Source: Malacoraja senta (taxonomy: Eukaryota). From it: a DNA stretch of 64,000 nucleotides. The stretch covers positions 2,296,001-2,360,000 of the forward strand of contig CM075994.1 of NCBI GenBank assembly GCA_038087875.1. Direction: 5' to 3'. Position numbers and translations under genes: made by a program. Of the stretch, positions 5,135-58,919 are shown piece by piece. The number at the start of each line of letters is the position of its first letter. The stretch's first letter is position 1. The notes below the pieces were generated by a model. It was not told where the DNA came from and did not search any database. It saw only the letters and a program-made list of their open reading frames with translations.

Positions 5135-5535
5135 CTGACCATATCTCATATTTCGCTTGGGCAGCTTACAGCCCAGTGGTATGATTTCTGATTTCTCTCA
5201 CTTCAGGTGGCCCCGGCATTCCCCCTCTCTCTCTCTCTATCTCTCCCCCACCCAAGTCGCACTAGCTTCTCGTTTTCACCCTACAAACAGCTTACAATGG
5301 CCTGTTTCCTTTATCATCATTACTTTTTTGGCATATCTTTCACTCATTGTTCTTTATTTCTCCACATCACCATCTCTATCTCTCATTTCCCTCATCCCTA
5401 ACCAGTCTGAAGAAGGATCTCGACCCGAAACGTCGCCCATTCCTTCTCGCCAGAGATGCTGCCTGTCCCGCTGAGTTACTCCAGCTTTTTGTGTCCACCT
5501 TCGGTTTAAACCAGCATCTGCAGTTCCTTCTTACA
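5135..5535 (+). mobile_element. Penelope-like element 3' fragment (GIY-YIG C-terminus plus pLTR with hammerhead core)
   Basis: Encodes HLIFRLGSLQPSGM, homologous to the 53740-53800 segment. Followed by a pyrimidine tract and GTCTGAAGAAGGATCTCGACCCGAAACGTC at ~5405-5434. Confidence 0.7.
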
Positions 5536-5699
5536 CATACTGACCGTGCCATTCTGAGCTGGCCCCATTTGCCTGAATTTGGCCTCATATCCTTCCAAAC
5601 CTTGTCTATAAATAGACACAAAATGCTGGAGTAACTCAGCGGAACAGGCAGCATCTCTGAAGAGAAGGAATGAGAGACCCTTGTTCAGAAGCTCCTGTC

Positions 5700-7692
5700 C
5701 ATTCACATGGCAGACGAGTTGAACAGGTAATTTGGTTCTGTCTTCACTAAGGAAGACACAAACACTCTCCCAGATGTACTAGGGAACAGAGGATCTAGGG
5801 TGATGGAGGAACTGAAGGAAATTCACATTAGTCAGGAAATGGTGTTGGGTAGACTGATGGAACTGAAGGCTGATAAATCCCCAGGGCCAGATGGTCTACA
5901 TACCAGGGTACTCAAGGAGGTGGCTCTAGATATTGTGGATGCATTGGTTAAGAAGGAACAGCAGATATTGGAAAAATCTAAAGTAGATGCTGGAGAAACT
6001 CAGTGGGTGAGGCAGCATCTATAGAGAAAAGGAGTAGGTGTCGTTTCGGGGTGAGACCCTTCTTCAGACTTATGTCAGGGGCGGTGGCAGGAAAAAGAAA
6101 GGAAGAGGCGTAGACAGTAGGCTATGTGGGAGAGCTGGGGAGCGGAAGGTGGGAGAAAGAAAGGACTACCTGAAATTAGAGAAGTCAATGTTCATACTGC
6201 TGGGGTGTAAACTACCCAAGCGAAATATGAGGTGTTGTTCCTCCAATTTGCGCTGGGCCTCACTCTGGCAATGGAGGCCCAGGATAGAAAGGTCAGATTC
6301 AGAATGGGAAGGGGAGTTGAAGTGCTGGGCATTGGTGATCATTTTCCAATGTTCTATAGATTCTGGATCAGTTCCTGTGGATTGGAGGGTAGCTAATGTT
6401 ATCCCACTTTTTCAGAAAGAAGGGAGGGAGAAAACAGGTAATTATAAACCAGTTAGCTTGGGGAAGATGCTGGAGTCAATTATTAAAGATGTAATAGCGG
6501 TGCATTTGAATAGCAGTAACAGGATCGGTCCAAGTCAGCATGTATTTACGAAGTGGAAATCTTGCTTGAGTAATCTTCTGGAATTTTTTGAGAATGTAAC
6601 AAGTAAAATTAATAAAGGGGAGCCAGTGGATGGATAGAAAATAGTTTGGCAGACAGGAAACAAAGAGTAGGAATTAACGGTTCCCTTTCAGAATGGCAGG
6701 TAATGACTAGTGGGGTGCTGCAAGGCTCGGTGCTGGGACCGCAGCTATGCACAATATATATTAATGATTTAGATGAAGGAATTAAAAGTAACATTAGCAA
6801 ATTTGCAGATGACACAAAGCTGGGTGGCAGTGTGAAGTGTGAAGAAGATGCCATGAGGATGCAGGGTGGATAGGTTAGGTAAGTGGGCAGATGCATGACA
6901 GATGCAGTATAATGTGGGTAAATGTGAGGTTATCCACTTTGGTGGCAAGAACAAGAAGGCAGATTATTATCTGAATGGTGTCAGATTAGGAAAAGGGGAA
7001 GTACAATGAGACCAGGGTGTCCTTGTACATCAGTCACTGAAAGTAAGCATGCAGGTACAGCAGGCAGTGAAGAAAGCTAATAGCATGTTGGTCTTAATAT
7101 TAAGCGAATTTGTGTATAAGAGCAAAGAGGTCCTTCTGTAGTTGTACAGGGCCCTGGTCAGACCTCACCTAGAATATTGTGTGCAGTTTTGGTCTCCTAA
7201 TTTGAAGAAGGACATTCTTGCTATTGAGGCAGTGCAACGTAGGTTCACAAGGTTAATTCCTGGGATGGCGGGACTGTCATATGATTAAAAGAATGGAACG
7301 ACTGGGCTGGAATTTAGAAGGATGAGCAAGAACCTTATAGAAACATATAAAATAATTAAGGGATTGCACACGCTAGATGCAGGAAACATGTTCCGGATGT
7401 TGGCGGAGTCCAGAACCAGAGGTCACAGTTTAAGAATAAGGCGTAGGCCATTTCGAACTGTGATGAGGGAAAACCTTTTCTCCCAGAGAGTTGTGAGTCT
7501 GTGGAATTATCTGCCTCAGGCAGTGGAGGCCAATTCACTGGATGCATTCAAAAGTGAGTTAGATATAGATCTTAGGGCTAGTGGCACCATGATCACAGTG
7601 AATGTCGGTGCTGGCTCGAAAGGCCGAATGGCCTACTCCTGCACCTATTATTTGTGTATCTGTATCTGTATCTATGTGTCTATGTATCTATG
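5700..7692 (+). mobile_element. CR1 (HER1-type) LINE, 5'-truncated ORF2, decayed
   Basis: Motifs KSPGPDGLH, VPVDWRVANV, KSCLSNLLEFF, QGSVLGP, KFADDTKLG, RTRGHS and the CR1 3' UTR with microsatellite tail. Stops and frameshifts are present. Confidence 0.88.
5949..6328 (-). mobile_element. Penelope-like fragment inserted into the CR1, with 8-bp TSD
   Basis: GCATTGGT is duplicated at 5941-5948 and 6329-6336. The insert is homologous to 53525-53885. Confidence 0.8.
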
Positions 7693-7921: not shown

Positions 7922-8040
7922 ATGACGAGCGTGGTAGCGCAGCAGGATGGCGGCGGTGGCGGCACCGGCAGCGGCACCTACACTTTCTCCAGCCACCCCA
8001 GGGCCCTGCAAGGGAGGAAGAAATACCGGCAGGAAGATCA
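7922..8040 (+). CDS. RSPH3: RSPH3 coding exon 1
   Basis: ATG at 7922. MTSVVAQQDGGGGGTGSGTYTFSSHPRALQGRKKYRQED resembles human STYTYTSRPRAL. Donor CA|gtgagt at 8041; 119 nt, phase 2. Confidence 0.88.
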
Positions 8041-8228
8041 GTGAGTGGAGAGGAGGGGTGAGGGATGGGGGGAGTGGAGGGGGTGAGGAGGGAGCTGAAG
8101 GGATGGAGGTGAGGGATGGAGGGGGTGAGGAGGGATGGATGGGTGAAGGCATGGAAGCGGTAAGGGAAGAAGGGTGGGGGATGGAGGGGTGAAGGGATAA
8201 AGGGAGTGAGATAGATGAGGCAGGTACT

Positions 8229-9651
8229 AGTCAAGTCAAGTCAAGTGCGTTTATTGTCATGTGTCCCTGGTAGGACAATGAAATTCTTGCTTTGCTTTAG
8301 CACAACAGAACATAGTAGGCATTTACTACAAGGCATTCTATAAATATATATATAAATTTATATAAATTTATATTATATAAATATATATAAATGGTCAATA
8401 TACTGATAAAGTGCAAATAACAGTATTGGCTAGTAAAGTTCAGTGTTATGTCCGAGCCAGGCTGTGGGGAAGTAGCTGTTCCTGAACCTGGTCGTTGCAG
8501 TCTTCAGGCTCCTGTACCTTCTACCTGAAGGTAGTAGGGAGATGAGTGTGTGGCCAGGATGGTGTGGGTCCTTGATGATGCTGCCAGCCTTTTTGAGGCA
8601 GCGACTGTGGTAGATCCCCTCGATGGAAGGGAGGTCAGAGCCGATGATGGACTGGGCAGTGTTTACTACTTTTTGTAGTCTTTTCCTCTCCAGGGCACTC
8701 AAGTTGCCGAACCACGAACCAGCATGCTCTCTACTGTGCACCTGTAGAAGTTAGAGAGAGTCCTCCTTGACAAACCGACTCTCCGTAATCTTCTCAGGAA
8801 GTAGAGGCGCTGATGTGCTTTCTTAATAATGGCATCATTGTTCTCGGACCAGGAAAGATCTTCAGAGATGTGCACGCCCAGGAATTTGAAGCTCTTGACC
8901 CTTTCAACCATCGACCCGTTGATATAAACGGGACTGTGGGTCCCCATCCTACTCCTTCCAAAGTCCACAATCAGTTCCTTGGTTTTGCTGGTGTTGAGGG
9001 CCAGGTTGTTGTGCTGGCACCATATGGACAGTTGCTCGATCTCTCTTCTATACTCTGACTCACCCCCATCAGTGATACGTCCCACAACAGTGGTGTCATC
9101 AGCGAACTTGATGATGGAGTTCGCACTATGTCCGGCTACGCAGTCATGAGTATAGAGTGAGTACAGCAGGGGACTGAGCACGCAGCCTTGAGGTGCTCCC
9201 GTGCTAATTGTTATCGAGTCTGACACATTTCCACCAATACGAACAGACTGTGGTCTGAGAGTGAGGAAGTCGAGGATCCAATTGCAGAGGGATGCGCAGA
9301 GACCCAGTTCTGCGAGTTTGGTAACCAGCTTGGAGGGGATGATTGTGTTAAATGCCGAGCTGTAATCGATGAATAACAGCCTGACATATGAGTTTTTGTT
9401 GTCCAAGTGGTCCAGAGCGGAGTGGAGGGCCAGCGAGATCGCATCCACCGTTGATCTGTTGTGGCGGTAAGCGAACTGCAGTGGGTCCAGGTTTTTGTCG
9501 AGGTAGGAGTTGATCTGCGTCATGATCAACCTCTCAAAGCACTTCATCACCACAGGCGTTAGTGCCACAGGGTCGATAGTCATTGAGGCACGTTACCTTA
9601 CTCTTCTTGGGCACTGGTATAATTGATGCCCTTTTGAAGCAGGTGGGGACT
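8229..9651 (-). mobile_element. Rex1/Babar-clade LINE, 5'-truncated RT and 3' end
   Basis: ORF 8699-9583 contains [54 protein letters not shown] and [12 protein letters not shown]. (CTTGA)n tail at 8229-8246. Confidence 0.85.
8340..8392. repeat. AT-rich (TA)n microsatellite
   Basis: Direct reading. Confidence 0.85.
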
Positions 9652-10553
9652 ATAACAACATTTAAAACATTTACAACATTATAACAATAGAATGACCTAC
9701 CCTGCTCTTGCAAATTACTTTGACTCTCTGTGTCCCTGTGGTATGTGGTTGATGGGCCGAATGGCCCAATTCTCCTCCTATCACATGATTTTATGCTTTA
9801 AAGGTTTATTGGCTGCTGTAAAAATTGTCGCTTGAGTGTTGGATGTACGGGTGATAGTTGATTGGCGCAGACTCAGTGGGCCGAAGGGACTGTTTCCACG
9901 CTGTATCTCTAAACTAACCTATACTAAATTAAAAAATATATATCCATGTTCCTACACTCGTGGTTTAAGTAGAAGTTAATTTGACACAGAATTTGTTCCC
10001 ATTTCTTGTCATGTTTCAGTTTGCACCTGGGACTGTTTACCCATGGCCCTTTTTACAAAAGTCATGAGGCATTACAGTATGAAAACAGGTTCTTTGGCAC
10101 ACCGAGTGCCACCAAACATTAATCACCTATTCACACTAGTTCCATATTATCGCAATTTCGCATCCCTGCATATTTTTGAGAGTCTAATTAACCCAAAAAA
10201 CTGTACGTCTTTGGGATGTGGAAAAGCACACAAAAGAAATCCACACGGTCACAGGCAGACCAGTGGAACTTCCTACCAGTGGAAGTTAACTTTGAAGCTA
10301 TTCTCCATTGTTCAGTGCTTTGTGTCCCTCCTATTGCCATAAAATCTAAAACCGCTGGCTTACCCAACCATGACAATTTGGTTTGAAGCTCCCTAGTCAT
10401 CCCAATGCCATGGTTTATTTTAACTACATATCGCATTCTGCCACTGTCATTGTTTAGTTACTGTTCTTTCTATTTGTAACAAATTCTGAATACAATTTAT
10501 GGAATGTCATGTCATTCTAAGCTCGTGCTAACAACTCAATCCTTTATTTTCAG

Positions 10554-10638
10554 ATGTACGGCAGGATATTATGGAAACATCATGTACGACAGAAGGGTGG
10601 TGCGAGGAAACACATACGCACAGCATACCCTCCCTGTG
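10554..10638 (+). CDS. RSPH3: RSPH3 coding exon 2
   Basis: Acceptor ctttattttcag. (Q)CTAGYYGNIMYDRRVVRGNTYAQHTLPV contains the RSP3 hallmark YGNIMYDRRVxRGNTYA. Donor gtaagc; 85 nt. Confidence 0.95.
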
Positions 10639-10690
10639 GTAAGCCTGTAGAGCATGATTCCAGCTTACAATTCAACAGTTTCTATCCATC

Positions 10691-11388
10691 GGGTGGCGTC
10701 ACCGTGTTGGCTGCCTCGCCAACAGTCTGTCAGTCCCCTCTCTGTTTTTATTCATTTAAGTATGTTTTAAAAGTATGATTTAGTGTTTCTTGGTTTGTTT
10801 TATGTGGGAGGTACTGGGGGGGGGGAATCGGGAGAAACCTTTTTCAGTCACTCACCTCGACGGAGATGCAATTTCGTCCCCCCCCTGCGGCTTAACAATG
10901 TGGAGTGGTGCAGCCTTTCCTGAAGACCGGCCCGGAGCTTCAGCCTTGGGCATGGCGCGGACTTACCATCGTGGAGCCTGCGATCCTTTGCCGAGGAACG
11001 CCAGTGAAAGGGCTCTTACCGCGGGGCCTGTGGACTTTAACACCGTGAAGCCGCCGTAAGAAGAGGCCGACTCGGGAGCTCCAAGCTCGATCCGTCCCGA
11101 CGCCGGAATTTCGTTCATCCCGACGCGAGGGCTTGAACATCGGATCGCCGGCAGCGGCGAACTGTGGAAGGTTCAGCCCCGACCACAGGTGAACAAAGGA
11201 GGAAGATGACTGAACTTTATTGCCTTTCATCACAGTGAGGAATGTGGATTCCACTTGTGGTGGATGTTTATGTTAAACTTTATTTTATGTGGCTATGTGT
11301 ATTGTTGCTTTTCACTTAGTATGGCTGTATGGTAACTCAAATTTCACTGTACCTTAATTGGTGCCTGTGACAAACGCAAACTTGAACA
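10691..11388 (+). mobile_element. Non-coding interspersed element with a Rex/L2-like 3' tail
   Basis: CpG-rich body ending in CACTGTACC...TGTGACAA...CTTGAAC, a tail type seen elsewhere in the window. No credible ORF. Confidence 0.4.
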
Positions 11389-12133
11389 TACTTTAACTAG
11401 ACGGTGGTGATCTGTGTAATTCATTGCCTCAGACGGCTGTGAAGGCCAAGACATTGGGTATTTTTAAAGTGGAGATTAATAGGTTCCTGATTAGTAAGAG
11501 CATCAAAGGTTACAGGGAGATGGCAGGATAATGCAGTTGAGAGAGAAAAGTAGATCAGCCATGATCAAATGGCAGAGTAAACTTGATGGACCAAATGGCC
11601 TGATTCTGTTCCTATGTCCTATGTCCTATGGTCTTATACATTATAGTTGGACCATATTAGAGTAGTCCATAGCTTTATAGTACTCTATGGCTTTATAGTT
11701 AGTATTACTTATTACAGTTGTCAATTTTAATTTTGATTAAATAGAAGGAATATTTGAAAAATCATTTTCACATATTGAATCAAAAATTCTGTTCACAGTT
11801 CAGGGAATTCCAAATAACATCTCCATCTTCCACAACTAGTGCTCAAAGCCATGTTTAAGACCAGCAGATGTGTGTCATCATGTGTGAATTTAAGCTGAGA
11901 TCACTCTTTCATCTTTTCAGCGGTGGACAAGAAAATTGACAGATGCAGAACAATGGGCAGCATTCAATAGGGAAATCTGTTTGGAGAAATGTGTTTCTAA
12001 AAATAACAAACTCGCCATGAATGGATAAAAAAATAGAGGAAATTAACATACATTTCAGAGAGAAACCACATAAACGGATCAGGATGATAACTATAATATA
12101 ATGAATGAGTTTAGGAAAGTAGTGGAAGGATGT

Positions 12134-15100
12134 TGTAGATTGGCTATTGCATGTTAGCCAATTAGAGTGTTTGTTAGTAGTAGCCCCGCCTAGTACATGT
12201 TAAATATATTAGGAACTCGCCTACATCAGACAGTAGATGCTGTAGCGGCAGATTTTTCTTATCTTTCGAGAAACTAATTCTCTAGCCGCTATTTGGATGA
12301 GAATGGATAAGGGGAATATCTTCGATACGCATGCAAGCTTCCTCAGAGATCTTCAGAGCTTCTTCACTCATAAAGCTTCAACACACAGTCTTTTGATGAA
12401 TAAATGCTTTATTGTTGATGGTAAACAGCAAGATACATCCAAGTTTCTTCCGACTCGTTACTGCAATCTTCCTTGAATTCCGACTTGCAACTTTAAACAT
12501 TACAAAACTCCTCGTGTCTCCCTAACATTGGCATGGTCGAAGGGTTGACCTTCTCCATCGTCTCTCCAAACTAATCTAAAAACTAAACTTCTGCGCAAGC
12601 ATCTAAGCTCCAAACATGCCCCAAAACACATCATAAATCCCACCCACAATATAACGGGCAGTCTAAAATTTAAAGGCACATGCCATCATCAGTGACATGC
12701 AAAACAGGCCAAATGGCCACTACAGATGCAGCAGCTTGAACATGTGATGTACTGCATATCCAATACTGTGGAGTTTAATAAGGATGTGCTGTACCTTACT
12801 TGTGTACGAGTCCGGTAATTACATGGTGTCAGAGAAGTGAGCTGGACCCTGTTTACCGCGATTTATTTCTTTTATCAGTTTTATTTTTTCATTTTTTCCC
12901 CGTCATGGCCAACTCCTGCCGCAAACCTATTGATCTTTGATTCAGACATCGCCGAGCGATGGCCTATCTTTGAACGTGACTATGCTCATTATATTCGCAT
13001 TGCTCATCGTAATGATCCTGATGATTTAAAGGCATCGCTACTGCTCAATCTAGCGGGTCCAGAGGCAATAAATCACGCAGACAACTTTGAATTTGCTCCT
13101 ACCATTCAAGATGCTAATGGCCAGGTCCTAGTGCCTGCCGATATCATCGACAACCCAACAGTTCTGCTCAGAAAATTCAGAGAGCTGTGTGACCTGCCCT
13201 CGAATTGCATACTAGAAAGAACAAAGTTCTTTGCCCGTCAGCAACAAGTCGATGAACCTGTCGAACAATTCATCAGTGATTTATGACACATGGCTACACG
13301 CTGTCGTTTTGGTGAGTTGACGAATGAACTTGTGAGAGATAAGATTGTGGGGGGTATAATCGATCACAAACTGAGGGCTGAGCTCCTTCGCAACCCAGAA
13401 TTGACTTTGGATCAAGCTATCCATTCATGTCGTATGTCAGAAGTCGTTTCCCCACTTGCAGACTCTGCGACTCTCAGCCCACGACAGCAGCATAACGTTA
13501 ATCTTGCTAATTATTCTCCCCGCAAAAGCTCAAATGTGCCTCGCAAAAGCCCAAACGTGCCTCGCAAAAGCCCAAATATACCTGCTGTGCGATGTCAGAA
13601 CTGCAATTATTTCCACTTGAGGGGGCGCCAGTTTTGTATAGCTTAAGGTAAAACCTGCCATCACTGTAAGAAGCTTCATCATTTTGCGATGTGCTGCCGT
13701 TCCCTTGAGAACAGCGCTTCAAGGACAAACCTGCACCTGTTGCAACAAGAGCTCTCAGACTCTGACTCCCTAGAGCTCGACAATGACTCCCACGAGAACA
13801 ACTCTGAAAATGCTGACTGCAACTCTGCGATCCACTCCCTCCTACGATCCTCTGGCAAACTGCTCGACCCTGAAGTGACCATGTTCATAAACAACAGGCC
13901 CCTGACAGCCAAGGTAGATACGGGGGCAAAAGTCAACATTATGTCGTTAAGGGAGTTTAACAAAATCCGGAACGCCGAACGAATGCAAAAGGACTCCTCC
14001 ACGCTTCATGCTTACGGGGGGTGTGGTTCTGTATCCACTTGGAAAAGCTGATTTAAAGTGCACGATAGATAACCAGACAAAAAACCTGCTGTTTTACATT
14101 GTGCAGTCAAATTCCGAGACCCTGCTTGGTATAAATGCATGTCATGACCTGGGCCTGGTGTATTTTGGACGTGCCGTCCACAAACTATGTCTATCAGAAG
14201 AGCCAGCACAGCAACTACTATCCCAGTACAAAGACCTGTTTGATGATGGACTTGGCAAGTTGCCCGCAACGTATAGGATCGCTGTGGATCCTACAGTCAC
14301 ACCTGTGGTCCGTGCACCACATCGCGTTCCCCATGCCGTGCGGGAAAGAATACACAATGAACTCAAACGCATGGTCTCCATTGGAGTAATTGCTGAAGTT
14401 AACGACCCGCCTGATTGGGTTTCCACCATGGTCATGGCGACTAATAAAAACAAAGACGAGATATGCATCTGCATCAACCCCAGGAACCTGAATACTGCAA
14501 TCAAGCGCCCTCACTACCTGATGAGAACAGAGGACGTCGCTGTGCAGATTGGAAACGCAGCAGTGTTCTCAGTCTTGGATGCTAAAAGCTCTTTCTGGCA
14601 AATACCACTAGATCCTGCATCATCCAACCTAACGACTTTTGCCACACCATTTGGCCGCTACAAATTTTTAAGGATGCCCTTCGGCATCAACTCTGCCAGC
14701 GAAGTCTTTCAACGTGCAATGGAACAAATGTTTGCAGAATATCCGTGCGCCATCATTGTTGACGATATCCTTGTCTATGGTCGTGATTTGGCTGAGCATG
14801 ACGCCAACCTGAAGAAAATACTAAACTGTGCCAGAGACATCAACCTCAAACTTAATCCACTTAAGTGCAGATTTCGGGTTCCGGTGGTCACCTACGTCAG
14901 ACATGTTTTTACCAGCAACGGCCTGAAGCCCGATCCGCTGAAGACTGCAGCCATAAACGAACTGTCTGTTCCTACCGATGTCACCATTTTGAAACGATTC
15001 CTCGGTATGGTGAACTACCTGGGCAAATTTATTCCCAACCTCAGCGACCTGTCGGCCCCCCTGCGCCAACTGACACATAAAGACACGGCGTGGTCCTGGT

Positions 15101-16085
15101 ACCCGCACCACCAACTGGTTTTTGACACTCTCAAACTTCAATTAGCGTGCGCGCCAACACTGTCGTATTTTGACCTCAAATTACCGGTCACCATCACATG
15201 CGATGCATCCCAGTATCTCGCCAGATGCATCCACCCTTGCTTGTCTCCCAGCAACAGCTGCAGCCGCGCGTCCGCTCCCCGCCCGCGGTGCAGAAGCAAC
15301 TGCAATTTAAACGCGACACACAAAAGCGTTTTTACGACAAGTCCAGCAAGCCGCTTAAACCACTGTCACGTGGACAAGTGGTTCGCCTGCAAACCGACAA
15401 AGGACATACCCGACTGGGGCACATTTATGGCCCTTCCAAAGAACCACGTTCCTACCTGGTCGATGTGGACTGTGTCATCTACAGACGCAACCGTCAACAT
15501 ATCCTTCTAGTGAAGGAACCACGTCCTGCGCCTACAGATCCTGATGCTCCGCCTCTCGTGTTTGCACAAACGCCTGCTCCAGCTACCCTACCAGCTACTC
15601 CACCACCTGTTGTAACTGCTGCCGCGTGTTCCCCGCATCGGTTTACCCCTGGCTCGCCTGTGGCGATTTCTCCCACCAGGCCCGCCGGGTCGCCGGTCAT
15701 GTCCCTACTCCCGGTTTCCATTTCTTCTCCCGCAAAGGAGGGTGAGGCGGTCTCCTACCGCACGAGGGCCGGACGGGTTTGCAGGCCACCCATCAGATAC
15801 GGTGATTTTGTATATTCTTGCTACATTCCCTCAGTATATTGTTTAAGATACCGTGGTTGCTTTTCATCTTCTACAAGAAGAGATGTAGATTGGCTATTGC
15901 ATGTTAGCCAATTAGAGTGTTTGTCAGTAGTAGCCCCGCCTAGTACATGTTTTATAATATTAGGAACTCGCCTACATCAGACAGTAGATGCAGCAACTTG
16001 AACATGTAATGTACTGCATATCCAATACTGTGGAGTTTAATAAAGATGTGCTGTACCTTAATTGTGTACGAGTCCGGTAATTACA
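12134..16085 (+). mobile_element. Gypsy (Mag-like) LTR retrotransposon, defective
   Basis: LTRs TG...CA at 12134-12823 (interrupted) and 15884-16085 (202 bp). PBS TGGTGTCAG at 12824 (tRNA-Leu-like); PPT before 15884; flanks GATGT/GATGG. Gag zinc knuckles, protease VDTGA, RT LDAKSSFWQI and IIVDD, C-terminal RTRAGRVCRPP. Stops and frameshifts present. Confidence 0.92.
12241..12724. mobile_element. Solo LTR of a different family nested in the 5' LTR
   Basis: 484 bp with short inverted termini TGTAGCGGC...GCCACTACA. Perfect 5-bp TSD GATGC (12236-12240, 12725-12729). Absent from the 3' LTR. Confidence 0.8.
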
Positions 16086-17495
16086 GATGGATTGAGAACA
16101 TCAATGTAAAGAAAAATAGTAACTATTTTCTGGGTACATGGGTAACAAAGAATCGAGCTGTTCTTGCAGAGCAATCCCATTAGTCTCATTCCCCTCTTTT
16201 TCATATATCCCTGCAACTTATTCTTTTACATCCACCCAACAACTCGTTTTTGATTGGAAATAAGGAACTGCTGATGTGTAGGAAAGAACTGCAGACGCTG
16301 GTTTAAATCAAAGATAGACACAAAATGCTGTAGTAACTCAGCGGGACAGGCAGCATCTCTGGAGAGAAGGAATGGGCAACGTTTTGGATCGAGACCCTTC
16401 TTCAGACAAGGAAGTGCAGATGCTGGTTGACCAAGGAAAGACACCCTTCTTCAGATGTTGCAACCTGAAACCAATCTATGTTCTCCAGGGATGCTGCCTG
16501 ACCCGCTGAGTTCCTCCAGCACCTCGAGGCTTAACTTCTTTTTGATTCTTTTGCCACTGATAGCTGACAGATTTAAGGCAAGCTCAGAAAGACTTAACAG
16601 TAAAAACTACAATTGACCTAACCCAAACGTTGATTTAAGTGGCCTGACGAAGGGTCCCAATTCAAAGGGTCTCGACCCAAAACATCACCCATTCCTTCCC
16701 TCCAGAGATGTTGCCCGTCTCGTTGAGTTACTCCAGCTTTTTGTGTCTATCCCAATCCTAAATGTTGCCTATCCATGTTCTCCAGGGATGCTGCCTGCCC
16801 AGCTGAGTCACTGCAGTACTTTGTGACATTTTTTATAAACCAACATTTACAGTTCCGTGTCTCGGTGATTTTATAGTGGCCATTTAACTCACTAGCATGT
16901 CTTTAGGAGTTAGGAGGAAACTGAAGCCTTCAGGGAAAACTCTTAGCTTCACAGGGGGAATGTGCAAGCTCCAGTCAGACCTGAGATGCTGTTCAAACCC
17001 AGCTCTTGTGCAAAGAAAAATAGTTTATTTGAACTAAAACATTAACTCTATTTCTGTTCCCACAGTTGTGGCCTGACTTGCTGAGTATTTCCATCTTCTG
17101 CATTAAAAAATAATTTCACCTCCCACTCCTCTGCAATCTAGAATTATCTATTTTGTCTAGATCAGATCAGTAACCTAGGGATACTGATCTGAAAAGTTGA
17201 TCCTGTTTCTCTTTCCACAGATGTTGCCCGACCCGCTGAGGATTTACAGTATTTTCTGTTTTTAATGTCTGCATTTGTATAGTCGCAGCACCAGCAGTTG
17301 TGCCATCATGCCACCCTGTTTCTATCTTACACTTATTCATTAACGTTTTTATTGAGTTTAAACTAAAGATACTATGCGGAAACATGCCCTTTGCCCCACC
17401 GAGTCTGCGCCAACCAGCGATCCCCATACATTAACACTATCCTACACCCGAGGGACAATTTACAATTTTACCGAAGCCAATTAACCTACAAACCT

Positions 17496-18046
17496 AGAAC
17501 TAGGGGACATAGTTGCAGAATAAGGGGGGGCTCTTTTAAAACTGAGATGAGGAAGAACTTCTTCACCCAGAGGGTGGTTAATTTATGGAATTCACTGCCC
17601 CAGGGAGCAGTGGAAGCAGAAACATTAAATATATTTAAGTCTAAAATAGATGGTTTTTTAGCTGCCAAGGGGATAAGGGGCTACGGGGAGAGGGCAGGGA
17701 TATGGACCTAGGTAGGGTTAGTATAGTAAGACCTGAGTGATCTCCTGGACAAGTGTCGATCGCCTGGATTGGGGTCGGAGAGGAATTTCCCGGATTTTTT
17801 TCCCGAATTGGACCTGGGTTTTTATCCGTTTTTTTGCCTTCCCCAGGAGATCACGCGGTTCTTGGGGTGGAGAGGGGTGATAGCGGTATAAAGGGGAGGG
17901 TAGTGTCTTGTGTTCTGTGTCTTGTGTCTACTGTTTGTGGGTAGGGGTGTTTGTTTGGTGTTCAGCCATGAGCGAATGGTGGTGCGGGCTCGATGGGCCT
18001 GGTGGTCTGCTCTCGCACCTACTTTCTATGATTCTATGATTCTATG
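17496..18046 (+). mobile_element. CR1 3' fragment inserted into an HE1-like SINE
   Basis: RTRGHS...RKNFFTQRVVNLWN motif, (TTCTATGA)n tail, TSD AACCT at 17491-17495 and 18047-18051. Confidence 0.8.
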
Positions 18047-18954: not shown

Positions 18955-19096
18955 ACAGCCCAGCCTGACCCTATTGAGATCCAGCGACAGCAAGAAATAC
19001 AGAGGAGGGCAGTTGCCCGGAGAAGAGCTAAAGCACAGTTGCGGACCACAACTCCACTCCCTCTGGATGGAAGGATACATATAGAGGTACAAACAG
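18955..19096 (+). CDS. RSPH3: RSPH3 coding exon 3
   Basis: Acceptor ...tttctacaccaatag. TAQPDPIEIQRQQEIQRRAVARRRAKAQLRTTTPLPLDGRIHIEVQT. Donor G|gtatga; 142 nt. Confidence 0.93.
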
Positions 19097-20586: not shown

Positions 20587-20621
20587 GGGTGACGTTTCGG
20601 GTCGAGACCCTTCTTCAGACA
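20587..20621 (-). ncRNA. Minimal type I hammerhead ribozyme motif in a Penelope-derived repeat (best-preserved copy)
   Basis: Minus strand reads CUGAAGA-A-GGGUC-UC-GACCC-GAAA-CGUC: CUGANGA box, stem II, GAAA box, palindromic ACGU stem III and a GUC cleavage triplet. Confidence 0.65.
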
Positions 20622-46299: not shown

Positions 46300-47545
46300 C
46301 CATGTGTATAAAATCATGAGAGGAATAGATCGGGTGGACGCACAGTCTTTTGCCCAGAATGGGGGAATCAAGAACCAGAGGCCATAGGTTTAAGGTGAAG
46401 GGAGAAAGATTTAATATGAATCTGAGGGGTAACTTTTTCATGCAAAGGGTGGTGTGTGTATGGAACGAGCAGCCAGAGGAGGTAGTTGAGGCAAGGACTG
46501 TTGCAACTTATAAGAAGCAATTCGACGGGTATATGAATTGGCATGGTTTAGAGGGATATGGGCCAAGCACTAGCAAATGCGACAGGTGTAGATGGGGCAT
46601 GTTGGTCGGTGTGGACGTTGGGCCGAAGGGCCTGTTTCCACACTATGACTCTGACTCTCTAGAGTCATAGAGTGATACAGTGTGGAAATAGGCCCTTCGG
46701 CCCCACTCGCCCTCACTGGCAAACAATGTCCCAGCTACACTAGTCCCACTTGCCTACGCTTGGGCCATATCCTTCCAAACCTGATCTATCCATGTACCTG
46801 TCTAACAGTTTCTTAAACGATGGGATAATCCCAGCCTCAACTACCTCCTCTGGCAGCTTGTTGCATACACCCACCATCCTTTGTGTAAAAAAGTTAACTC
46901 TCAGATTCCTATTCAGTCTTTTCCCCTTCACCTTGAACTTATGTCCTTTAGTCCTCGATTCCCCTATTCTGGGCAAAGACTCTGTGTATCTACCCGATCT
47001 TTCTTCTCATGATTTTGTATACCTCTATAAGATCTCCCCTCATCTTCCTGCGCTCCATGGAATAGAGATCCAGCCTACTCAACCTCTCCCTGTAGCTCAC
47101 ACCCTCTAGTCCTAGCAACATCCTCGTAAATCATTTCTGAACCCTTTCAAGCTTGACAATATCTTTCCTATAACATGGTGCCCAGAACTGAACACAATAT
47201 TCTAAATGCGATCTCACCGGTGTCTTATACATCTGCAACATGACCTCCCATCTTCTATACTCAATACTCTGACAGATGAAGGCCAAAGTGCCAAAAGCCT
47301 TTTTGACACCTTATCTACAATACATATGATTCGACTTTCAAGGAACCATGCATCTGTACTCCTAGATCCCTCTGCTCGACAACACTACCCAGAGGCCTAC
47401 CATATACTGTGTAGGTTGTGCCCTTGTTCGACCTCCCAAAATGCAACACCTCACACTTTTCCGTATTAAATTCCATCAACCATTCCTCCGCCCACCTGGC
47501 CAATCGATCGAGATCCTGCTGCAATTTTCCACAACCATCTTCGCT
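46300..47545. mobile_element. Tail-to-tail pair of CR1 fragments (+ 46300-46658, - 46660-47545)
   Basis: ORFs 46350-46670(+) and 46740-46976(-) encode homologous CR1 C-termini. The tails meet at ...gactctctagagtc... Confidence 0.8.
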
Positions 47546-47747
47546 ATCTGCAAAACGACATCACCCTCTGTTTCCTTCCATGGAGCCAATTTGCTATCCA
47601 TTCAACTATCCTTGGATCCCATGCGATCTAGCCTTCCAGTAACATTTAAGAGAATAGACCTGATGCAATGATGCCAAAGTCGAGCCTTTCTTGAGAAAAG
47701 TGAATTATTAAAAACACGTGTGTATGTGTTTTCCCCTTGCTTTGCAG

Positions 47748-47818
47748 TACTTCTTCGTGATGTGGAAAATAACAGAAGCCAAATGTTCAGAGATAGTCAG
47801 CGACCTGCGAAGAAATGA
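47748..47818 (+). CDS. RSPH3: RSPH3 coding exon 8 (terminal)
   Basis: Strong acceptor ttttccccttgctttgcag. (I)LLRDVENNRSQMFRDSQRPAKK-TGA resembles human MLIREVVEKR. Phase matches exon 7. Confidence 0.8.
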
Positions 47819-52059: not shown

Positions 52060-53521
52060 TATTTACTAAAACTTTTCCCTAAAATTGTAGCACACAGCTC
52101 CTGTTTGCATTCTGGGCAGCAGATGGAGAAGGCAGGCATGGGTTATTGATTGGGGACGATCAGCCACGATCGCAATGAATGGCGGTGCTGGCTCAAAGGG
52201 CCGAATGGCCTCCTCCTGCACCTATTTTCTATGTTTCTTTGCAGGATTAAACACTGCACAGTAAGAACTTGGGGATTACCAAATACAAAGAGTGTAAACA
52301 ACATGAACTGTTATCAACCTGCACAATCATGTGGGGTGTCACAGTGGTGCAGCGGGTAGAGCTGCTTCCTCTCAGCGTCACAGACCCGGGTTTGATCCTG
52401 ACCTCGGGTGCTATATTTGTGGAGATTGCACCTTCTCCTTTAACCACGTGGATTTTTTAGGGGTGCTCCGGTTTCCTCCCACATCCGAAAGGCGTTGGGG
52501 TTTGTAGGTTCATTGGCCTCTGTAAATTGTCCCTCGTGTGTAGGGTGTGGATGCGAAAGTGGGATCACAGAACTAGTGTGGTCAGCGCGGACTTGGTAGG
52601 CCAAAGAACCAGTTTCCACACTATAGATAAAAAATATAAATAAATAAATAAGTCCCTTGATTGGCAAAGCAGATAGATTTGGAACTGTTTTTCAACAAAT
52701 GCAATGTGTTTTAGCCAGAGTAAGGGAATCAAGATAGACACAAAATGCTGGAGTAACTTAGCGGGTCAGGCAGCATCTCTGGAGGAAAGGAATAGGTGAC
52801 ATTTCAGGTCTCGACCCGAAACGTCACTTATTGCTTTTCTCTAAAGATGCTGCCTAAACCGCTGAGTTACACCAGCATTTTGTGTCTATCTTTGGAGTAA
52901 ACCAGCATCTGCAGTTCCTTCCAACACAGGGGAATCGAGAACCAGGGCATATAGGTTTAAGGTGAGAGAGGAAAGATTTAACATGAGCCTGAGGGGCAAC
53001 TTTTACACACAAAGGATGGTGGGTATATCGAAAGAGCTGCCAGAGGAGATACTGTAGTTGAGGCAGGTATTATCACAACATTTAAAAGACGTTTGAAGTA
53101 GTACATAGATAGGAAATTTTAGAAGGATATTTGGGCCAAACCAGTGTAGATGAGGCATCGTGCACATTATGCTCACCCTTTGTGTTGCTGTGCTGGGATC
53201 AATTGAGTCATGGAGCTATAAGAATAGAAACAGGCCCCTCAGTCCACTTTGTCCACGCTGACCAAGTTGTCTAGTCCCATTTGCCCCATATATCTCTCTA
53301 AACCTTACCTTTCCATATATCCGTCCAAATGTCTTTTGAAAGTTGTATTATATCTGTTTCATTAACTTCCTCCAACAGCTTGTTCCAGATACTATCTACT
53401 CTGAGTGAAAAAGTTGCCCCTGAGGTCTATCTTAAATCTGTCCCCTCTTAGTTTAAGCCTGCGCCCTCTAGTTTTAGAATCCTCTACCCCAGGAAAATGA
53501 TTGTGAGCATTCATTTTTTCC

Positions 53522-54682
53522 AAGGTAGACATAAAATGCTGGAGAAACTCAGCGGGTGAGGCAGCATCTATGGAGAGAAGGAATAGGCGACATTTCGGGT
53601 TGAGACCCTTCTTCAGACTGATGTCGGGGAGACCAGGAACAAGAATAAGAAAGGAAGAGGCGGAGGCAGTAGGCTTTGTGGGAGAGCTGGGAAGGGGGAG
53701 GGGGAGGGAGAAAGCAAGGGCTATCTAAAATTAGAGAAGTCATTGTTCATACAATTGGGGTGTAAACTACCTAAGCGAAATATGAGGTGCTGTTCCTCCA
53801 ATTTGCGCTGGGCCTCACTCTGGCATTGGAGGAGGCCCAGGACAGAAAGGTCAGATTGGGAATAGGAGGGGGAGTTGAAGTGCTGAGCAACCGGGAAATC
53901 AGGTTGGTTAATATGAACTGAGAGGAGGTGTTAGGCGAAGCGATCGCCAAGCCTGCGCTTGGTCTCGCCAATGGAGAGAGGTTGGCACATGGAACAGTAG
54001 ATGAGGTTGGAGGAGGTGCAGGTGAACCTCTGCCTCACCTGGAAAGACTGATTGGGTCCTCGGATGGTCGAGGAGGGAGGTAAAGCGACAAGTGTAGCAT
54101 TTCCTGCGGTTGCAGGGGAAAGTACCCGGGGAGGAGGTGGTTTGGGTAGGAAGGGACGAATTGACCAGGGAGTTGCGGAGGGAACGGTCTCTGCGGAAAA
54201 CAGAAAGGGGAGGAGATGGGAAGATGTGGCCAGTGGTATGATCCCGTTGGAGGTGGCAAAGATGTCCGAGGATTATATGTTGAATGCGACGGCTGATGGG
54301 GTGGAAGGTGAGGACAAGGGGGACTCTGTCCTTGTTATGAGTAGGGGGATGGGGAGTAAGAGCGGAGCTGCGGGATATAGAGGAAACCCTGGTGAGAGCC
54401 TCATCTATAATAGAAGAGGGGAACCCCCGTTCCCTAAAGAATGAGGACATCTCCGATGCCCTGGTATGCCCTCCCCCCCTCCCCTTCCCAGCTCTCCCAC
54501 AATGCCTACTGTCTCCGCCTCTTCCTTTCATTTCCCCCCCCCCCCTGACATCAGTCTGAAGAAGGGTCTCGACCCAAAACGTCGCCTATTCCTTCTCTCC
54601 ATAGATGCTGCCTCACCTGCTGAGTTTCTCCAGCATTTTGTGTCTATCTTCGATTTTTCCAGCATCTACAGTTCTTTCTTAA
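53522..54682 (-). mobile_element. Penelope-like element (Neptune/Poseidon type), 5'-truncated, with inverted pLTR
   Basis: Minus-strand FRERGFP...RVPLVLTFHP...FRRDRSLRNSLV...CNRRKCYTC, decayed YIG motif (SIGETKRRLGDRFA*H) and EEQHLIFRLGSLHP. The pLTR at 53522-53720(-) is mirrored at 54466-54682(+). Confidence 0.85.
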
Positions 54683-57600
54683 ACATTTGTTCATTTTATC
54701 CATGTTGCTCATGAGCCTGCATATGGAGTTTGTCTTTGGCCTTGTGTAGGAAGGAACTGCAGATGCTGGTTTACACCGAAGATAGACACAGAATACTGGA
54801 GTAACTCAGCGGGTCAGGCAGCATCTCTGGAGAAAAGGTGATGTTTCGGGTTCCGACCCGAAACGTCACCTACTCCTTTTCTCCAGGCATGCTGCCTGAC
54901 TTATTTTGTCTTCAGCTTTCCTGGTTTTAAGGTGGGCTCAGACACCACAGCTGTGAGTCAATGGTTAGAGCAGGATTTGTAGTGTGAATGAGTCTTTCAT
55001 TAGCTGGCAGAAATAGTCCTATGTACTCATTATTTGCTGATCAATAAAACTAGATTACAAATGTTGCCATTTCCAGAAATGAGAAAAGCACATGAACATG
55101 ATAATGGAAAATGATGAGAGAGCAGTTTACTTGAATTTGTAGAATTCAATGTATAATTATGTGTTTGCGGTGGTCACGGTGGTGGTGGTGGTTTTGGCAG
55201 AGGCGGCCGAGGGAGGCCCGACAGCAGCCGGGCGAGCGAGAGGATCAAGCGAAGGCAGAATAATTAAATACTTCATGGAAGTGGAGTCCTCCCAGAAATG
55301 CTATTTGCACAGAGGAATGAAAGGAAATCTGTACTAAAATGGTGTTGAGAAATTAATGGGACTGAAAGCCGATACATCCCCAAGGTTAATGACCTACATT
55401 CCAGCGCGTTGACAGGGTTAATGGAGGCATGTGTTGCCATCTTCCAACGTTTTACAGGTGGCAGGACAGCCCCGGCAGGTAGCAGGGTGGAAAATGTAAT
55501 TACAGTGCTTACAAAAAGAAGAGAAAAAAAAAAGAAATAGTTAACCTAATATCGTTAGCAGGAAAAGTGGTGGAGGGTGGCAAAGTGGCGCAACCGGTAG
55601 AGCTGCTGCCTCGTAGCACCAGAGTTCAATCATGACATCAGGCGCTGTCTATGTGGAGTTTGCATGTTCCACATGTGACCATGTGGGTTTCCTCCCACAT
55701 CCCAAAAACCTGTGGATTTGCAGGTTAATTGGCCCTCTGTAAATTACCTCCAGTGTGAAGGTAATGGATGGGAAAGTGGAATAACGTAGAACTAATGGTC
55801 GGCGTGGACTTGGTGGGCCGAGGGGCGTGTGTCTATGCTGTATCTCTAAACAGAACTAAACCCAGCATCGTAATTGCAGAAATCTCTGGAGCTGAAATGT
55901 GGGATCAGAGAACTATGCTTAGTCTTGTTTAGTCATTCAAGCAGAGAGTGAGTTCTTATTCCACATTCGGTTTACAGCCTATTTCAACGTAAAGCTCCTT
56001 TTGTTCTGTTTCCTCGGTAACCGTAAGGTCAAGGGAGAGAAACTCCTCTTTAGTTGCTATCAATAAATATGTGCCTGTTAAACTTGCCTCCCGCGCATTT
56101 GGTTCTACTGAAGTGCAAGGAATCAAATATGTAGAGGTGAGCAGGCTTGTATCTGATACTCTGACACGTCACTGGTGCTATCAGCTGCAACCTTCACCTC
56201 CACCAGCGTAACCTGAGAGTTATTACAGTGCTTTAGTTTTGTTTAGAGACAGCATGGAAACAGCCCCTTCGGCCCACCGAGTGTGCGCCAACCAACAATC
56301 ACCCATACATTAGTTCTATTCTACACACTAGGGACAATTTTTGTACAGAAGCCAATTAACCTGCAGATCTAGATGGGCACAAAGTGCTGGAGTAACTCAG
56401 TGGGTCAGGCAGCATCTCTGGAGAAAAAAGATGGGTGTTGTTTTGGGTTGGGATACTTCGTCAGACATTCTACCTTCTAAACTACAAACCTGAACGTTTT
56501 TGGAAATGTTAGAGAAAATCGGAGCACCCGGAGAAATACCCATGGGGAGAACATGCAAACTCCGCACAGACAGCACCCGAGATCAGGATCGAACCCAGGT
56601 CTCTGGCGCTGTAAGGCAGCAACTCTACTGCTGTGCCACTGTGCCATCCCCTGCTATCTACTGCAGAGTTGAGCTGCTGCCTTACTGTGCCAGAGACCTG
56701 CGTTCGATCCTGACCTTGTGTGCTGTTGGTGTGGAGTTTGTATGTTGTGCCTGTGACCGCGTGGGTTTCCTCCGGGCATTCCGGTTTCCTCGCACATCCC
56801 AAAGACTTACGGGTTTGTAGATTAATTGGCCCTCTGTGAATTATCCTTAATGTGACCCTAGAGAGTGGGAATATATAGAACTAGAATGACAAATTAGATT
56901 GATGTGGCCTCATGAAGTAATACAGTGTGGAAACAGGCCATTCGGCCCAACTTGCCCACACCCAGCAAAATTTCCCATCTACACTAGTTCTACCTACCTA
57001 CGTTTGGCCCGTATCCCTCTAAATCTTTCCTATCTCAGTACCTGTCCAAATGTTTTTTAAACATTGTCATAGTAGTGACTCAGTGGGCCGAAGGATCTGT
57101 TTCCAAGCAGTATATTTTTTATTCTGTAGTTTTGCAGTGCAGTTGTTTTGGCTTTGTAACTGGAAATGTTTTCCAAATGTGAGCTGTGCACTTCAACATG
57201 AATTCTGTTCACCTGCTATCGGGAGGCGTCTGTACCCCGAGGCAAAACCTGGGCGAGTCTGACACATCACCCTTGAAAGATGACGGTCGTCTGAACTGAA
57301 TGAAGTCAGTGAGTGCCTGGACTGGAAAATGGAAATTCGCAGCCAGGTGTGAAAAGGTATACGTTGAAGCTCACACATGAAAGACGCGGCCTTCGCTCTT
57401 ATTCTGAATACTTTGTCGAGGATTTGGACAATTTGTTAAGAAACTTGCGATAGACACAAAGTGCTGGAATAATTTAGCGGGTCAGGCAGCATCTCTGCAG
57501 AAAAATGGTGGATGATGTTTCGGGTTGGGACACTTCTTCAGACTGATGATAGTGACTCATGAGGCTGTGGGGCCTGTTTCTGTGCTGTATATCTAAATTT

Positions 57601-58919
57601 TGCAGGATAGTTGTTTTGGCTTTGTAACTGGAAATGACCAAATCTGAGCTATGAAATGTTAGTCTGAAGAAAGATCCCGACCCGAAACATCACCCATCCT
57701 TTTTCTCCAGAGTTGCTCCTGACCCGCTGAGTTACTCCAGCACTTTGTGTCTATCTTTGGTATAAACCAGCATCTGCAGTTCTATGTTTCTACATCTTGT
57801 TAAGAAGCCAGACAAACTGGTTCCTTCTTATAACTGAACCAAGAAACAATTTACCGCTGAAGACACAAAGTGCTGGAGAAGCTCAGCGGGTCAGGCAGCT
57901 TCTCAGGACATGGAGAGGAGACGATTCGACCTGAAATGTCTCCAATCTATGTTCTCCTGAGTTGCTGCCTGATCCGCTGTGCTATTCCAGCACTCTGTGT
58001 GTTATTTTGTAAACCAGCATCTGCAGTTTCTTGTTTCAACCATTTATCACTGCTAGGCAATCTGCCACCAGTCCTCCTGGTGAAAACTCTAACCTCAGAA
58101 GCTGTGAAGACCATTGCGTACCTGCACTCAAAACAACAATATCGAACTACAGCTTTAAAGAACCTTGTTTAGGCCGTATTTGGAATTTTGTATGTAGTTC
58201 TGTTCATTCTATTACGGGAAGGATGTGGAGTCTTTGGAAAGGGTGCAGAGGTGATTTACCAGAATGATGCATGGATTAGGGGGTATTAGCTACAGGGAGG
58301 GGTTGGACAAACTTGGATTGTTTTCTCTGGAATGCCTGAGGTTGCAGGGAGACCTGATGGAAGTATATAAAATTGTAAGATGCATAGATAGGGTTGACGG
58401 TCAGAATCTTTTTCCCAGCATGGAAAAGTCAAATATTAGCTTGAGGGTGAGAGGGGCAAAGTTGAAACGAGATGTGCGGAGCAAGTTTTTTACACAGATG
58501 GTGGTGAGTGCCTGGAACATACTGCCGTGGGTGGTGGTTGAAGCAGATACATTCGTGGGATTTAAAACACTTTTGGATAGGCACATGGATATGCAGGGCT
58601 ATGGGTTATGTGCAGGGCTATGGGTTATGTGCATAGTCTTGGCTTTGTACAGACTTTGTGGGTTGCTGGGCCTGTCCTTTTGCTAATACTGTTCTATGCT
58701 CCATGTTCTAAATTATTCAGGATGTAGGACATATCTAATCATTTGAATTGTTTTAAAGGCCACAGTAGTTTATACTTGCATTTAAAGTCAAGAGTGGCAA
58801 ATTGCAATTTGTACCAACAACAGAACAATGAAATTCATACTTGCTGCAGTTTAACAGGAAGGTAAATACAATACACACAGATAATATTTGATAATCAAAA
58901 ATAAAATAAATGAATAACC

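Follow-up and report, generated by a model that had tools for sequence, protein, structure and literature searches.

Dispersed repeats with a minimal hammerhead motif in skate-like DNA are probably pLTR ends of Neptune-type Penelope-like elements

The repeats dispersed through a 64-kb stretch of DNA (the window, which is the whole of the sequence analysed and holds no full-length element) are very probably pLTR ends of Neptune-type Penelope-like elements (PLEs) of skate-like fish, carrying the minimal hammerhead ribozyme (min-HHR) of PLEs and most likely inert where they now lie. Single decayed minimal hammerheads of PLEs number in the thousands in fish and amphibian genomes. A high-copy family with sharp ends could give a natural read-out of what the PLE hammerhead does.

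Results

A profile search (nhmmer, seeded with seven copies) finds 28 related pieces in the window at E<=0.01 and none in the reversed window; they sum to 2756 bp, or 4.3% of the window. The 28-nt motif itself, with up to three mismatches, is present at six sites, where none is expected and the maximum over 100 shuffles is zero. An earlier note on this DNA had listed 12 dispersed motif sites on both strands, and all 12 indeed carry the motif or a decayed version of it on the strand given, at positions within 1-2 nt; its sites thus exist, but its tally is too low and overstates their integrity, the core being perfect in 1/28 pieces. The Penelope origin and the minimal type I hammerhead architecture proposed there are borne out by the link to PLE ORF ends and by boxes like those of PLE min-HHRs. 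The exact family pattern has no match among viral and prokaryote genome contigs.

Three fragments retain coding remnants. The largest, 53516-54687, had been taken for an ORF-bearing Penelope (53522-54682) with the motif in its pLTR; the motif is present in both pLTRs, but the unit is a 5′-truncated, broken 3′ PLE fragment of ~250 codons (post-RT region, zinc linker and GIY-YIG) with a frameshift, a stop and no RT core. Its 3′ pLTR (53516..53723, − strand, without tail) has the motif at 53589-53616 with C15.2 changed to U. The broken Neptune-type ORF remnant (53724..54468, −) comprises the post-RT region, a C-X4-C-X2-C linker and a GIY-YIG-type endonuclease, with the frameshift near 54066 and the stop at 53931-53933. 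The second pLTR (54459..54687, +, with tail), inverted and not direct relative to the first, has the motif at 54556-54583 with G12 changed to A, and an 8-bp duplication flanks the whole unit. A second 3′ PLE fragment, with upstream sequence of type B (5142..5538, +), keeps the last ~22 endonuclease codons (5142-5207), a pLTR min-HHR (5407-5434) and a tail to 5538. A third, of upstream type A (5943..6331, −), keeps the endonuclease end (6169-6331), the motif at 6040-6067 with U16.1 changed to A and an 8-bp target-site duplication; types A and B have nothing in common upstream of the motif. The motif lies 102, 108 and 200 nt past the ORF end in the three fragments, and 73-142 nt past the endonuclease end in 6/8 PLE-linked metagenome loci. 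The ORF remnant is 53-64% identical to shark and ray proteins, and the window pieces are 55-64% identical to the GIY-YIG region of these relatives. Pfam recognizes GIY-YIG in 6/11 and RVT_1 in 2/11 of the shark and ray relatives, mostly under curated cut-offs, and returns nothing relevant for six window pieces alone. Together, the C-terminal GIY-YIG, the C-X4-C-X2-C linker, the inverted pLTR, the one-sided tail and the duplications suggest an EN+ PLE of Neptune type, here with its RT core absent.

The core was scored for CUGANGA, GAAA, CGUH and a 4-bp stem II, and the sole perfect copy is at 20591-20618 (−). At 5407-5434 (+) every box survives, but stem II has an A.C mismatch; boxes are complete in 2/28 pieces, and the majority consensus also has CUGANGA, GAAA and an NUH cut triplet. 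The extra base between 9 and 10.1 is A in 14/14, the G10.1-C11.1 pair is GC in 10/11, and the palindromic 15.2-16.2 segment gives an ACGU self-duplex of −3.1 kcal/mol (computed). Stem I is as weak as first described, with 2 bp (100% of cells paired), and stem II has 4 bp (84% of cells paired); the covariation that the earlier note proposed to look for in these stems is absent among window copies, where neither the hammerhead fold nor a rival hairpin rises above shuffles. RNAalifold on 18 copies returns only a downstream hairpin, without compensatory changes. Rfam hammerhead families give no match at E<=5 in the window or at E<=10 in 20500-20660, which contains the perfect copy; in our reading, minimal forms fall outside the Rfam hammerhead models.

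Folding predictions for the monomer in 12 contexts favour the rival hairpin, which spans the core, by 4-13 kcal/mol, and given this preference the ribozyme of this family may be inactive already in the parent element. A masking hairpin as a general PLE feature was considered and rejected, since stem II is probable (>0.5) in 35/60 other families. In these 60 unrelated metagenome families the box architecture is identical, stem II reaches at least 4 bp in 49/60 (null mean 9.7, maximum 21), and stem I averages 2.6 bp (null 0.7), with 2 bp or fewer in 30/60. The min-HHRs of Schistosoma are reported to have longer stems than those found here (stem I 4-5 bp, stem II 7-8 bp; PMC4209133).

The boxes vary less between subfamilies than the downstream pLTR, conservation over the flanks being a point on which the earlier note had staked its reading: among non-CpG columns, alleles common to at least three copies are found in 0/10 of the boxes and in 26/60 of the downstream pLTR (p=0.01). 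Such invariance across subfamilies points to selection on the motif in active parents. Private non-CpG changes amount to 3.6% in the core and 6.0% downstream (p=0.29). CpG changes affect G12, C15.2 and G16.2 in 7/22 each, the loop in 11/40 and the downstream region in 8/50, so the CpGs of the core decay as fast as the remaining ones. After insertion the copies decay neutrally, CpGs first, and they are most likely inert at these loci.

Short separate insertions exist, as the earlier description of ~100-200-bp coding-free units had it, but the motifs at 5407, 6067 and 53616 join ORF remnants. Duplications of 6-12 bp directly flank 6/16 units examined, and the empty site is unbroken in other host-repeat copies for 4/5 tried. 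The perfect core, for which a cut after 20591 is predicted, belongs to a ~100-bp insertion in an older repeat (20519..20623, −; 6-bp duplication) and lies within RSPH3 intron 3 in antisense orientation. A short unit with a decayed core (56360..56468, −) sits in a SINE-like repeat that is unbroken in six other window copies, and a piece starting inside stem II (37649..37729, −) sits in an older repeat with a 12-bp duplication. The piece at 35445..35548 (−) has its 5′ end exactly at the first base past the predicted cut, as 1/28. Further pieces are a short pLTR piece with the second core half deleted and no tail (5609..5689, −), two old, strongly decayed pieces (17049..17301, +; 67-72% to consensus), a tail-only profile match (18775..18817, −) and an old decayed piece (20883..20999, −). 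A composite spans 16274..16528, in which a pLTR unit with tail and G12 changed to A (16274-16409, −) comes after another with an internal deletion that starts at 16454 (−), the latter being head-to-head with 16461-16528 (+, without the first box).

Head-to-head arrangements recur. The palindrome at 52730..52928 is centred on the stem II hairpin, with a tail on one arm only, the first box in neither arm and a 7-bp duplication; a second one (54742..54903) has stem II as its centre. A pair at 57449..57791 consists of 57449-57547 (−) and 57658-57791 (+), both with decayed cores, separated by a 110-nt unrelated spacer and enclosed by a 10-bp duplication, and an older pair (57861..58039) meets in or beside stem II. 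One-arm tails, inverted 5′-truncated copies and junction palindromes are among the PLE traits described (bioRxiv 2021.04.23.441226, PMC3846280).

Nine of the 14 box-bearing copies start 0-7 nt before C3 of the CUGA box, and not at the cut site, with no PLE similarity upstream. This shared start suggests a fixed RNA 5′ end, set either by a start site with run-off copying or by a short non-autonomous family. Plain random truncation does not explain this sharp edge, which weighs against the reading proposed below. At the other end, two 3′ ends ~35 nt apart are seen among the copies. In ORF-linked copies the box follows a pyrimidine tract and CAG. Splicing was rejected as the source of the common edge: nine short copies share no upstream exon, and AG is there in 2/60 metagenome families. 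A joint of 53618 to 53777 in two sequencing runs is ill-defined.

By tblastn, whose limits are approximate, the RSPH3 coding span (7922..47812, +) has eight exons, at 7922-8041, 10552-10644, 18955-19101, 26237-26389, 29351-29557, 33594-33779, 34964-35050 and 47747-47812. Sense pieces within it include a duplicated broken core in intron 2 (16644-16751, +, followed in tandem by an older piece at 16750-16860), a piece in intron 4 with U4 changed to C and the cut-site palindrome lost (28277..28366, +), a core-less decayed piece in intron 7 (44133..44197, +) and another in intron 7 (46167..46255, +) with G12 changed to A, a broken stem II and an internal deletion fusing core to tail. The relevance that the earlier note gave to sense copies in RSPH3 introns is not supported by these data, as 0/8 are intact and the only perfect core runs antisense. 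Neither strand carries two intact cores, so no pair is available for a dimer. A PDB search returned only a non-significant RSPH3 match (E 8.7).

Discussion

We propose that the RT and GIY-YIG endonuclease of the element itself inserted the pLTR ends, the motif presumably being kept by selection in active parent elements, as its invariance across subfamilies suggests. In the parents, cutting after GUC would take place only as a dimer or with protein help, as the literature indicates (dimer cleavage: Lunse et al., cited in the review PMC6765202). The likeliest route to the 100- and 135-nt units, held tentatively and at rather less than an even chance, is that the RT primed internally on uncut RNA, at its two start sites in a pLTR, and ran off at an RNA 5′ end immediately ahead of the CUGA box; the palindromes might reflect cDNA that folded back on stem II. 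A bolder version is possible, though less likely than not: a very abundant skate 100/135-nt PLE-derived element, whose 5′ end is set by an initiator-like site lying 2-3 nt ahead of the first box, would spread by internal priming and run-off on uncut RNA while a core-masking hairpin holds the ribozyme off. If this were true, the Neptune start site and the two RT start sites could be read off genomic copies to the base, and the spread of some subfamilies after loss of the ribozyme fold would be in vivo evidence that PLE mobilization does not need cleavage.

It is possible, if on balance doubtful, that the short units are instead a self-propagating SINE-like non-autonomous family, in which a 100/135-nt pLTR piece, with an internal promoter at the 5′ edge, is transcribed independently and PLE proteins copy it in trans. 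The edge reads TCAGTCT, which we take to be an initiator-like word, although the same letters fit a splice acceptor. The ribozyme-bearing non-autonomous family of the earlier note agrees with the separate, in several cases clean, insertions with duplications and with the common 5′ edge, but short copies of an autonomous RNA fit equally. Two 19-copy metagenome PLE families are without such an edge, and in run X20 541 contigs depart from the reference at 53618 and 466 at 53619, agreement being low, whereas 587 contigs at 53621 resemble type B; since the pLTRs of types A and B are wholly different upstream, some loose ends belong to other ORF-linked subfamilies. In a small, weakly supported tree, no ORF-linked copy of the window falls into a clade of eight short pieces, but other short copies cluster with ORF-linked pLTRs, and 64 kb is too small to claim a clade without an autonomous partner.

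Ordinary random 5′ truncation, in which case local alignment and differences between subfamilies in the upstream sequence would give the edge artefactually, is unlikely. Heavy 5′ truncation is the rule for PLEs (bioRxiv 2021.04.23.441226), the absence of shared sequence upstream of the motif in types A and B would favour such an artefact, and summed contig depth in X20 is alike over ORF end and motif, although the four sequencing runs are contigs in which depth is no copy number. However, the DNA upstream of 20618 and 56464 is the host repeat that the insertion interrupted, which makes both edges genuine junctions, and of ten ends in a 108-nt region nine lie within the same 8 nt (crude binomial p=6e-10, uniform truncation assumed).

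That an active ribozyme makes the short units, with self-cleavage setting the 5′ end or with monomers deriving from tandem circle-forming non-LTR retrozymes, is improbable. The start at 35548 and two small head-to-tail joins near 16.4 and 16.75 kb agree with it, as does the report of pLTR-derived retrozymes in one chondrichthyan (Li et al., 2026, bioRxiv 2026.07.22.740005). However, 27/28 pieces start elsewhere, most retain the core sequence upstream of the cut, which cleavage would remove, 53588 is absent among the 24 loose-end places listed for four runs, and there is no tandem array with two intact cores. Co-option of intronic copies to cut or tune RSPH3 pre-mRNA is already largely refuted and very improbable: 8/14 pieces inside the coding span are in sense, but 8:6 is no strand bias, an intact core is missing from all eight, the single perfect one lies in antisense and the copies show no extra conservation once inserted.

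The motif is the minimal type I hammerhead already described for PLEs in 2014. As far as that account is drawn on here (Cervera and de la Pena, 2014, PMC4209133), PLE min-HHRs share with our copies the CUGANGA and GAAA boxes, the extra base between 9 and 10.1, the G10.1-C11.1 pair, the palindromic 15.2-16.2 segment and the lack of helix III; they likewise occur mainly as dispersed single motifs and as pairs on opposite strands, 100-700 bp apart, from truncated PLEs including fish Neptune. In contrast, the stems are shorter here (I 2 bp, II 4 bp) and a rival hairpin covers the core. One supplement file of that paper has no shark or skate entry. Outside subscription journals, Repbase and Dfam, we found no cartilaginous-fish description beyond the papers cited; supplements outside this search (PMC4209133 file 1, tables of bioRxiv 2026) may list shark or skate families. 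Neptune EN+ PLEs, in the sections considered of Craig et al. (2021, bioRxiv 2021.04.23.441226), also have a C-terminal GIY-YIG, a CX2-5CxxC linker before the endonuclease, 5′ truncation, an inverted copy at the 5′ end and a 30-40-bp tail on one end, whereas only broken 3′ fragments are found here.

Animal non-LTR retrozymes, in the part of Li et al. used (2026, bioRxiv 10.64898/2026.07.22.740005), are similarly coding-free, pLTR-derived and equipped with a type I HHR, and are present in the one chondrichthyan sampled. They are, however, defined as tandem repeats in which two or more complete HHRs follow one another, whereas our pieces are dispersed or inverted with one perfect core; membership was rejected, as no tandem pair of complete HHRs exists among the 28 pieces. 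The Penelope of Drosophila virilis (PMC2377424, PMC4209133, in part) likewise has a 2-bp helix I, with a splice acceptor at the helix I 5′ end that resembles our pyrimidine tract plus CAG; its internal TATA-less promoter starts transcription 46 bp before a 75-bp intron, whereas any intron or start site here is putative. For priming on uncut RNA, a close parallel is Anolis Poseidon (Frangieh et al., 2024, PMC11167929), in which two internal RT start sites define the tail, matching the 3′ ends ~35 nt apart here. Poseidon belongs to another clade, its ORF starts at stem II, and the portion of that study considered does not mention any fixed 5′ edge at the ribozyme. There, uncut RNA is the main template in vitro and no reads end at the cut site, with which our copies, ending at the 5′ edge of the ribozyme and not at the cut, agree.

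Results

Penelope-derived pieces and their insertion

The earlier note had placed a hammerhead motif (hereafter the core) at 12 sites in the window, and an intact or decayed form is present at all 12, 6 of which match the 28-nt motif with at most three mismatches, against 0 in 100 shuffles. A profile search seeded with seven copies recovered 28 pieces related to the pseudo-LTR (pLTR) ends of Penelope-like elements (PLEs), amounting to 4.3% of the window (E ≤ 0.01; 0 in the reversed window). A second abundant repeat, SINE-like and ~290 bp long, lies at 2413-2712 and at least seven other places, and with numerous LINE 3′ ends it fills the window.

The Penelope origin proposed for the pieces was borne out: some are joined to PLE ORF ends, and the ORF remnant is related to shark and ray GIY-YIG proteins. 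This remnant encodes ~250 codons at 53724-54468 (−), with 53–64% identity to shark and ray proteins, and lies between inverted pLTRs at 53516-53723 (−) and 54459-54687 (+), the unit being flanked by an 8-bp duplication. Among 11 shark/ray relatives, Pfam matches, mostly under curated cut-offs, were to GIY-YIG in six and RVT_1 in two. The remnant is defective (stop at 53931-53933, frameshift near 54066, beginning downstream of the RT core), and its endonuclease is preceded by a C-X4-C-X2-C linker, a mark of the Neptune and Nematis clades (bioRxiv 2021.04.23.441226, in part). Other fragments with an ORF end lie at 5142-5538 (+) and 5943-6331 (−).

The 3′ ends of the pieces form two groups ~35 nt apart, and the longer end on one arm of inverted pairs is the PLE "tail", a known one-sided trait (bioRxiv 2021.04.23.441226, in part; PMC3846280). 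Duplications of 6-12 bp immediately flank 6 of 16 units checked, and in four of five cases tried the host repeat has further copies in which the empty site is uninterrupted. Three head-to-head pairs join in or beside the stem II hairpin. At 57449-57791, a 110-nt unrelated spacer separates two head-to-head pLTR pieces, the whole lying within a 10-bp duplication; part of the spacer resembles what we take to be a LINE/SINE tail. Possibly the PLE machinery captured foreign sequence here, as is known in rotifers (PMC3846280).

A shared 5′ edge

Fourteen copies with a recognisable first box (CUGA, beginning at C3) were chosen by hand, two doubtful ones being excluded. PLE sequence continues upstream in 4 and marginally in 1; the 9 with no upstream similarity start 0-3 nt before C3 in eight cases and 7 nt before it in one. 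In the copies at 20618 and 56464 this edge is a true junction, because the upstream DNA is an interrupted host repeat; on our reading, a 6-9-nt inverted scrap at both junctions resembles the pLTR 3′ end. The edge sequence, TCAGTCT, would fit the initiator consensus and, with the accompanying pyrimidine tract, also a splice acceptor. Two 19-copy metagenome PLE families, unlike the window, have scattered 5′ ends.

Contigs of one sequencing run (X20) depart from the reference, with low agreement, at 53618 (541) and 53619 (466), and three other runs have loose ends at 53619-53622, all among the matches listed. A further 587 X20 contigs at 53621, again among the matches listed, resemble the second of two unrelated sequences found 5′ of the motif in ORF-linked pLTRs, so part of this pile represents other subfamilies. 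No loose end falls at the predicted cut site, 53588/53589, among the matches listed (24 of 2881). Our search, which covered openly accessible papers but neither Repbase nor Dfam and not every supplement, found neither this skate family nor a fixed edge described; the kind of PLE hammerhead had been described in 2014 (PMC4209133, in part).

Hammerhead architecture

Rfam gave no hammerhead match in the window, nor on the perfect copy. The motif runs CUGANGA, an additional A, a 4-bp stem II, GAAA and CGUC, with a 2-bp stem I (positions numbered after Hertel). Minimal type I hammerheads of PLEs have the same feature list and are mostly lone motifs in truncated elements, but also opposite-strand pairs, fish Neptune included (PMC4209133, in part). 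Metagenome contigs were scanned with a pattern in which only the boxes and the outermost two pairs of stem II were fixed; at least 119 loci matched, grouped into 60 families. Stem II reaches at least 4 bp in 49 of the 60 (swapped-halves null: mean 9.7, maximum 21 of 2000), and the mean for stem I is 2.6 bp against 0.7 in the null; pair types are diverse. Among the matches listed, 8 of the 119 loci match shark/ray PLE proteins, with the motif 73-142 nt past the endonuclease end in six of these, compared with 102, 108 and 200 nt in the window. Because stem pairing beats the null and loci match PLE proteins, we take the architecture to be genuine RNA structure that belongs with PLEs, which need not mean that the skate copies cleave. 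One metagenome contig (loci L025 and L026) carries a PLE that encodes both RT and endonuclease and shares 51% identity with a whale shark protein; its inverted pLTRs both contain the hammerhead, a layout as at 53516-54687.

State and decay of the copies

The core is perfect in one of the 28 pieces, 20591-20618 (−), and the sole further piece keeping every box, 5407 (+), has a stem II mismatch. Excess conservation of the boxes over their flanks is present as fewer subfamily-shared variants: at non-CpG positions, shared variation affects 0 of 10 core columns versus 26 of 60 downstream (p=0.01, split by allele frequency), and private changes are alike (3.6% versus 6.0%, p=0.29). Non-CpG cells off consensus number 6/165 in the core versus 205/1466 downstream, the core figure being somewhat flattering because local alignment prefers copies retaining the first box. 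The core's CpG positions decay unchecked, with changes in 7/22 at G12, at C15.2 and at G16.2, against 11/40 at loop CpGs and 8/50 at downstream CpGs. The simple reading is selection in parent elements, then neutral decay of inserted copies.

No covariation of hammerhead stems was found among 18 aligned window copies. The hammerhead-constrained fold is predicted to lie 4-13 kcal/mol above the best fold (12 contexts, six copies). In the majority of short contexts, the pyrimidine tract that follows the cut site would instead capture the first box together with the 5′ strand of stem II, forming a rival helix 91% paired across copies, with covariation likewise absent. A G-to-A change at the third stem II pair, common to four copies (from 5407, 46172, 56464, 57664 and 57541), disrupts stem II yet suits the rival hairpin, and G16.2-to-A is also common to several; the former copies may be a subfamily that went on spreading after its ribozyme had lost function.

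RSPH3 and neighbouring DNA

RSPH3 (7922-47812, +) has eight coding exons, the first 89% identical to an Amblyraja protein, the best of four matches, all batoids, which marks the DNA as that of a skate-like fish. Its coding span holds 14 pieces, eight sense and six antisense. The earlier note expected sense copies to be transcribed with the gene; an effect on RSPH3 RNA finds no support, as none of the eight has an intact core and the one perfect copy runs antisense. Among the 28 pieces, intact cores never occur twice on one strand. LTR retrotransposons occupy RSPH3 introns at 12134-16085 (LTRs 96% alike) and 38585-43162 (98%), the latter with a 1145-codon frame at 39564-43001 (−); both appear Ty3/Gypsy-like from their ORFs. 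An open frame of 483 codons at 441-1892 (+), with no Pfam match, is presumably the last coding exon of TAGAP, which we take to adjoin RSPH3 in other vertebrates; the near-intact 5407 copy sits 3.5 kb downstream, in sense. A near-perfect hairpin at 46620-46704 has weak miRNA-family matches and resembles two LINE-type tails back to back.

Discussion

The pieces record PLE-type insertion and decay, with 3′ ends of two kinds and 5′ ends either in stem II or at the edge of the ribozyme. The RT of an Anolis PLE is reported to prime internally on a template of uncut RNA (PMC11167929, in part), and the ribozyme reportedly requires a dimer or protein (PMC4209133 and PMC6765202, both in part). We infer that RT sites of a pLTR close to the RNA 5′ end would prime synthesis, that run-off at a start site just 5′ of the box would give copies of 100 and 135 nt, and that palindromes would arise by fold-back on stem II. 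A dedicated non-autonomous family may make the short copies, and predicts the same appearance within 64 kb. Ends set by cleavage, or copies from tandem retrozymes, fit poorly, with just 1 of 28 pieces starting at the predicted cut site.

Features of the window have counterparts in known systems. In the Anolis element, two internal RT start sites bound the tail (PMC11167929, in part), comparable to the two 3′ ends in the window. Junction palindromes of rotifer PLEs, interpreted as self-priming (PMC3846280), are like the three head-to-head pairs, and a splice acceptor at the window edge would match that of D. virilis Penelope (PMC4209133 and PMC2377424, both in part).
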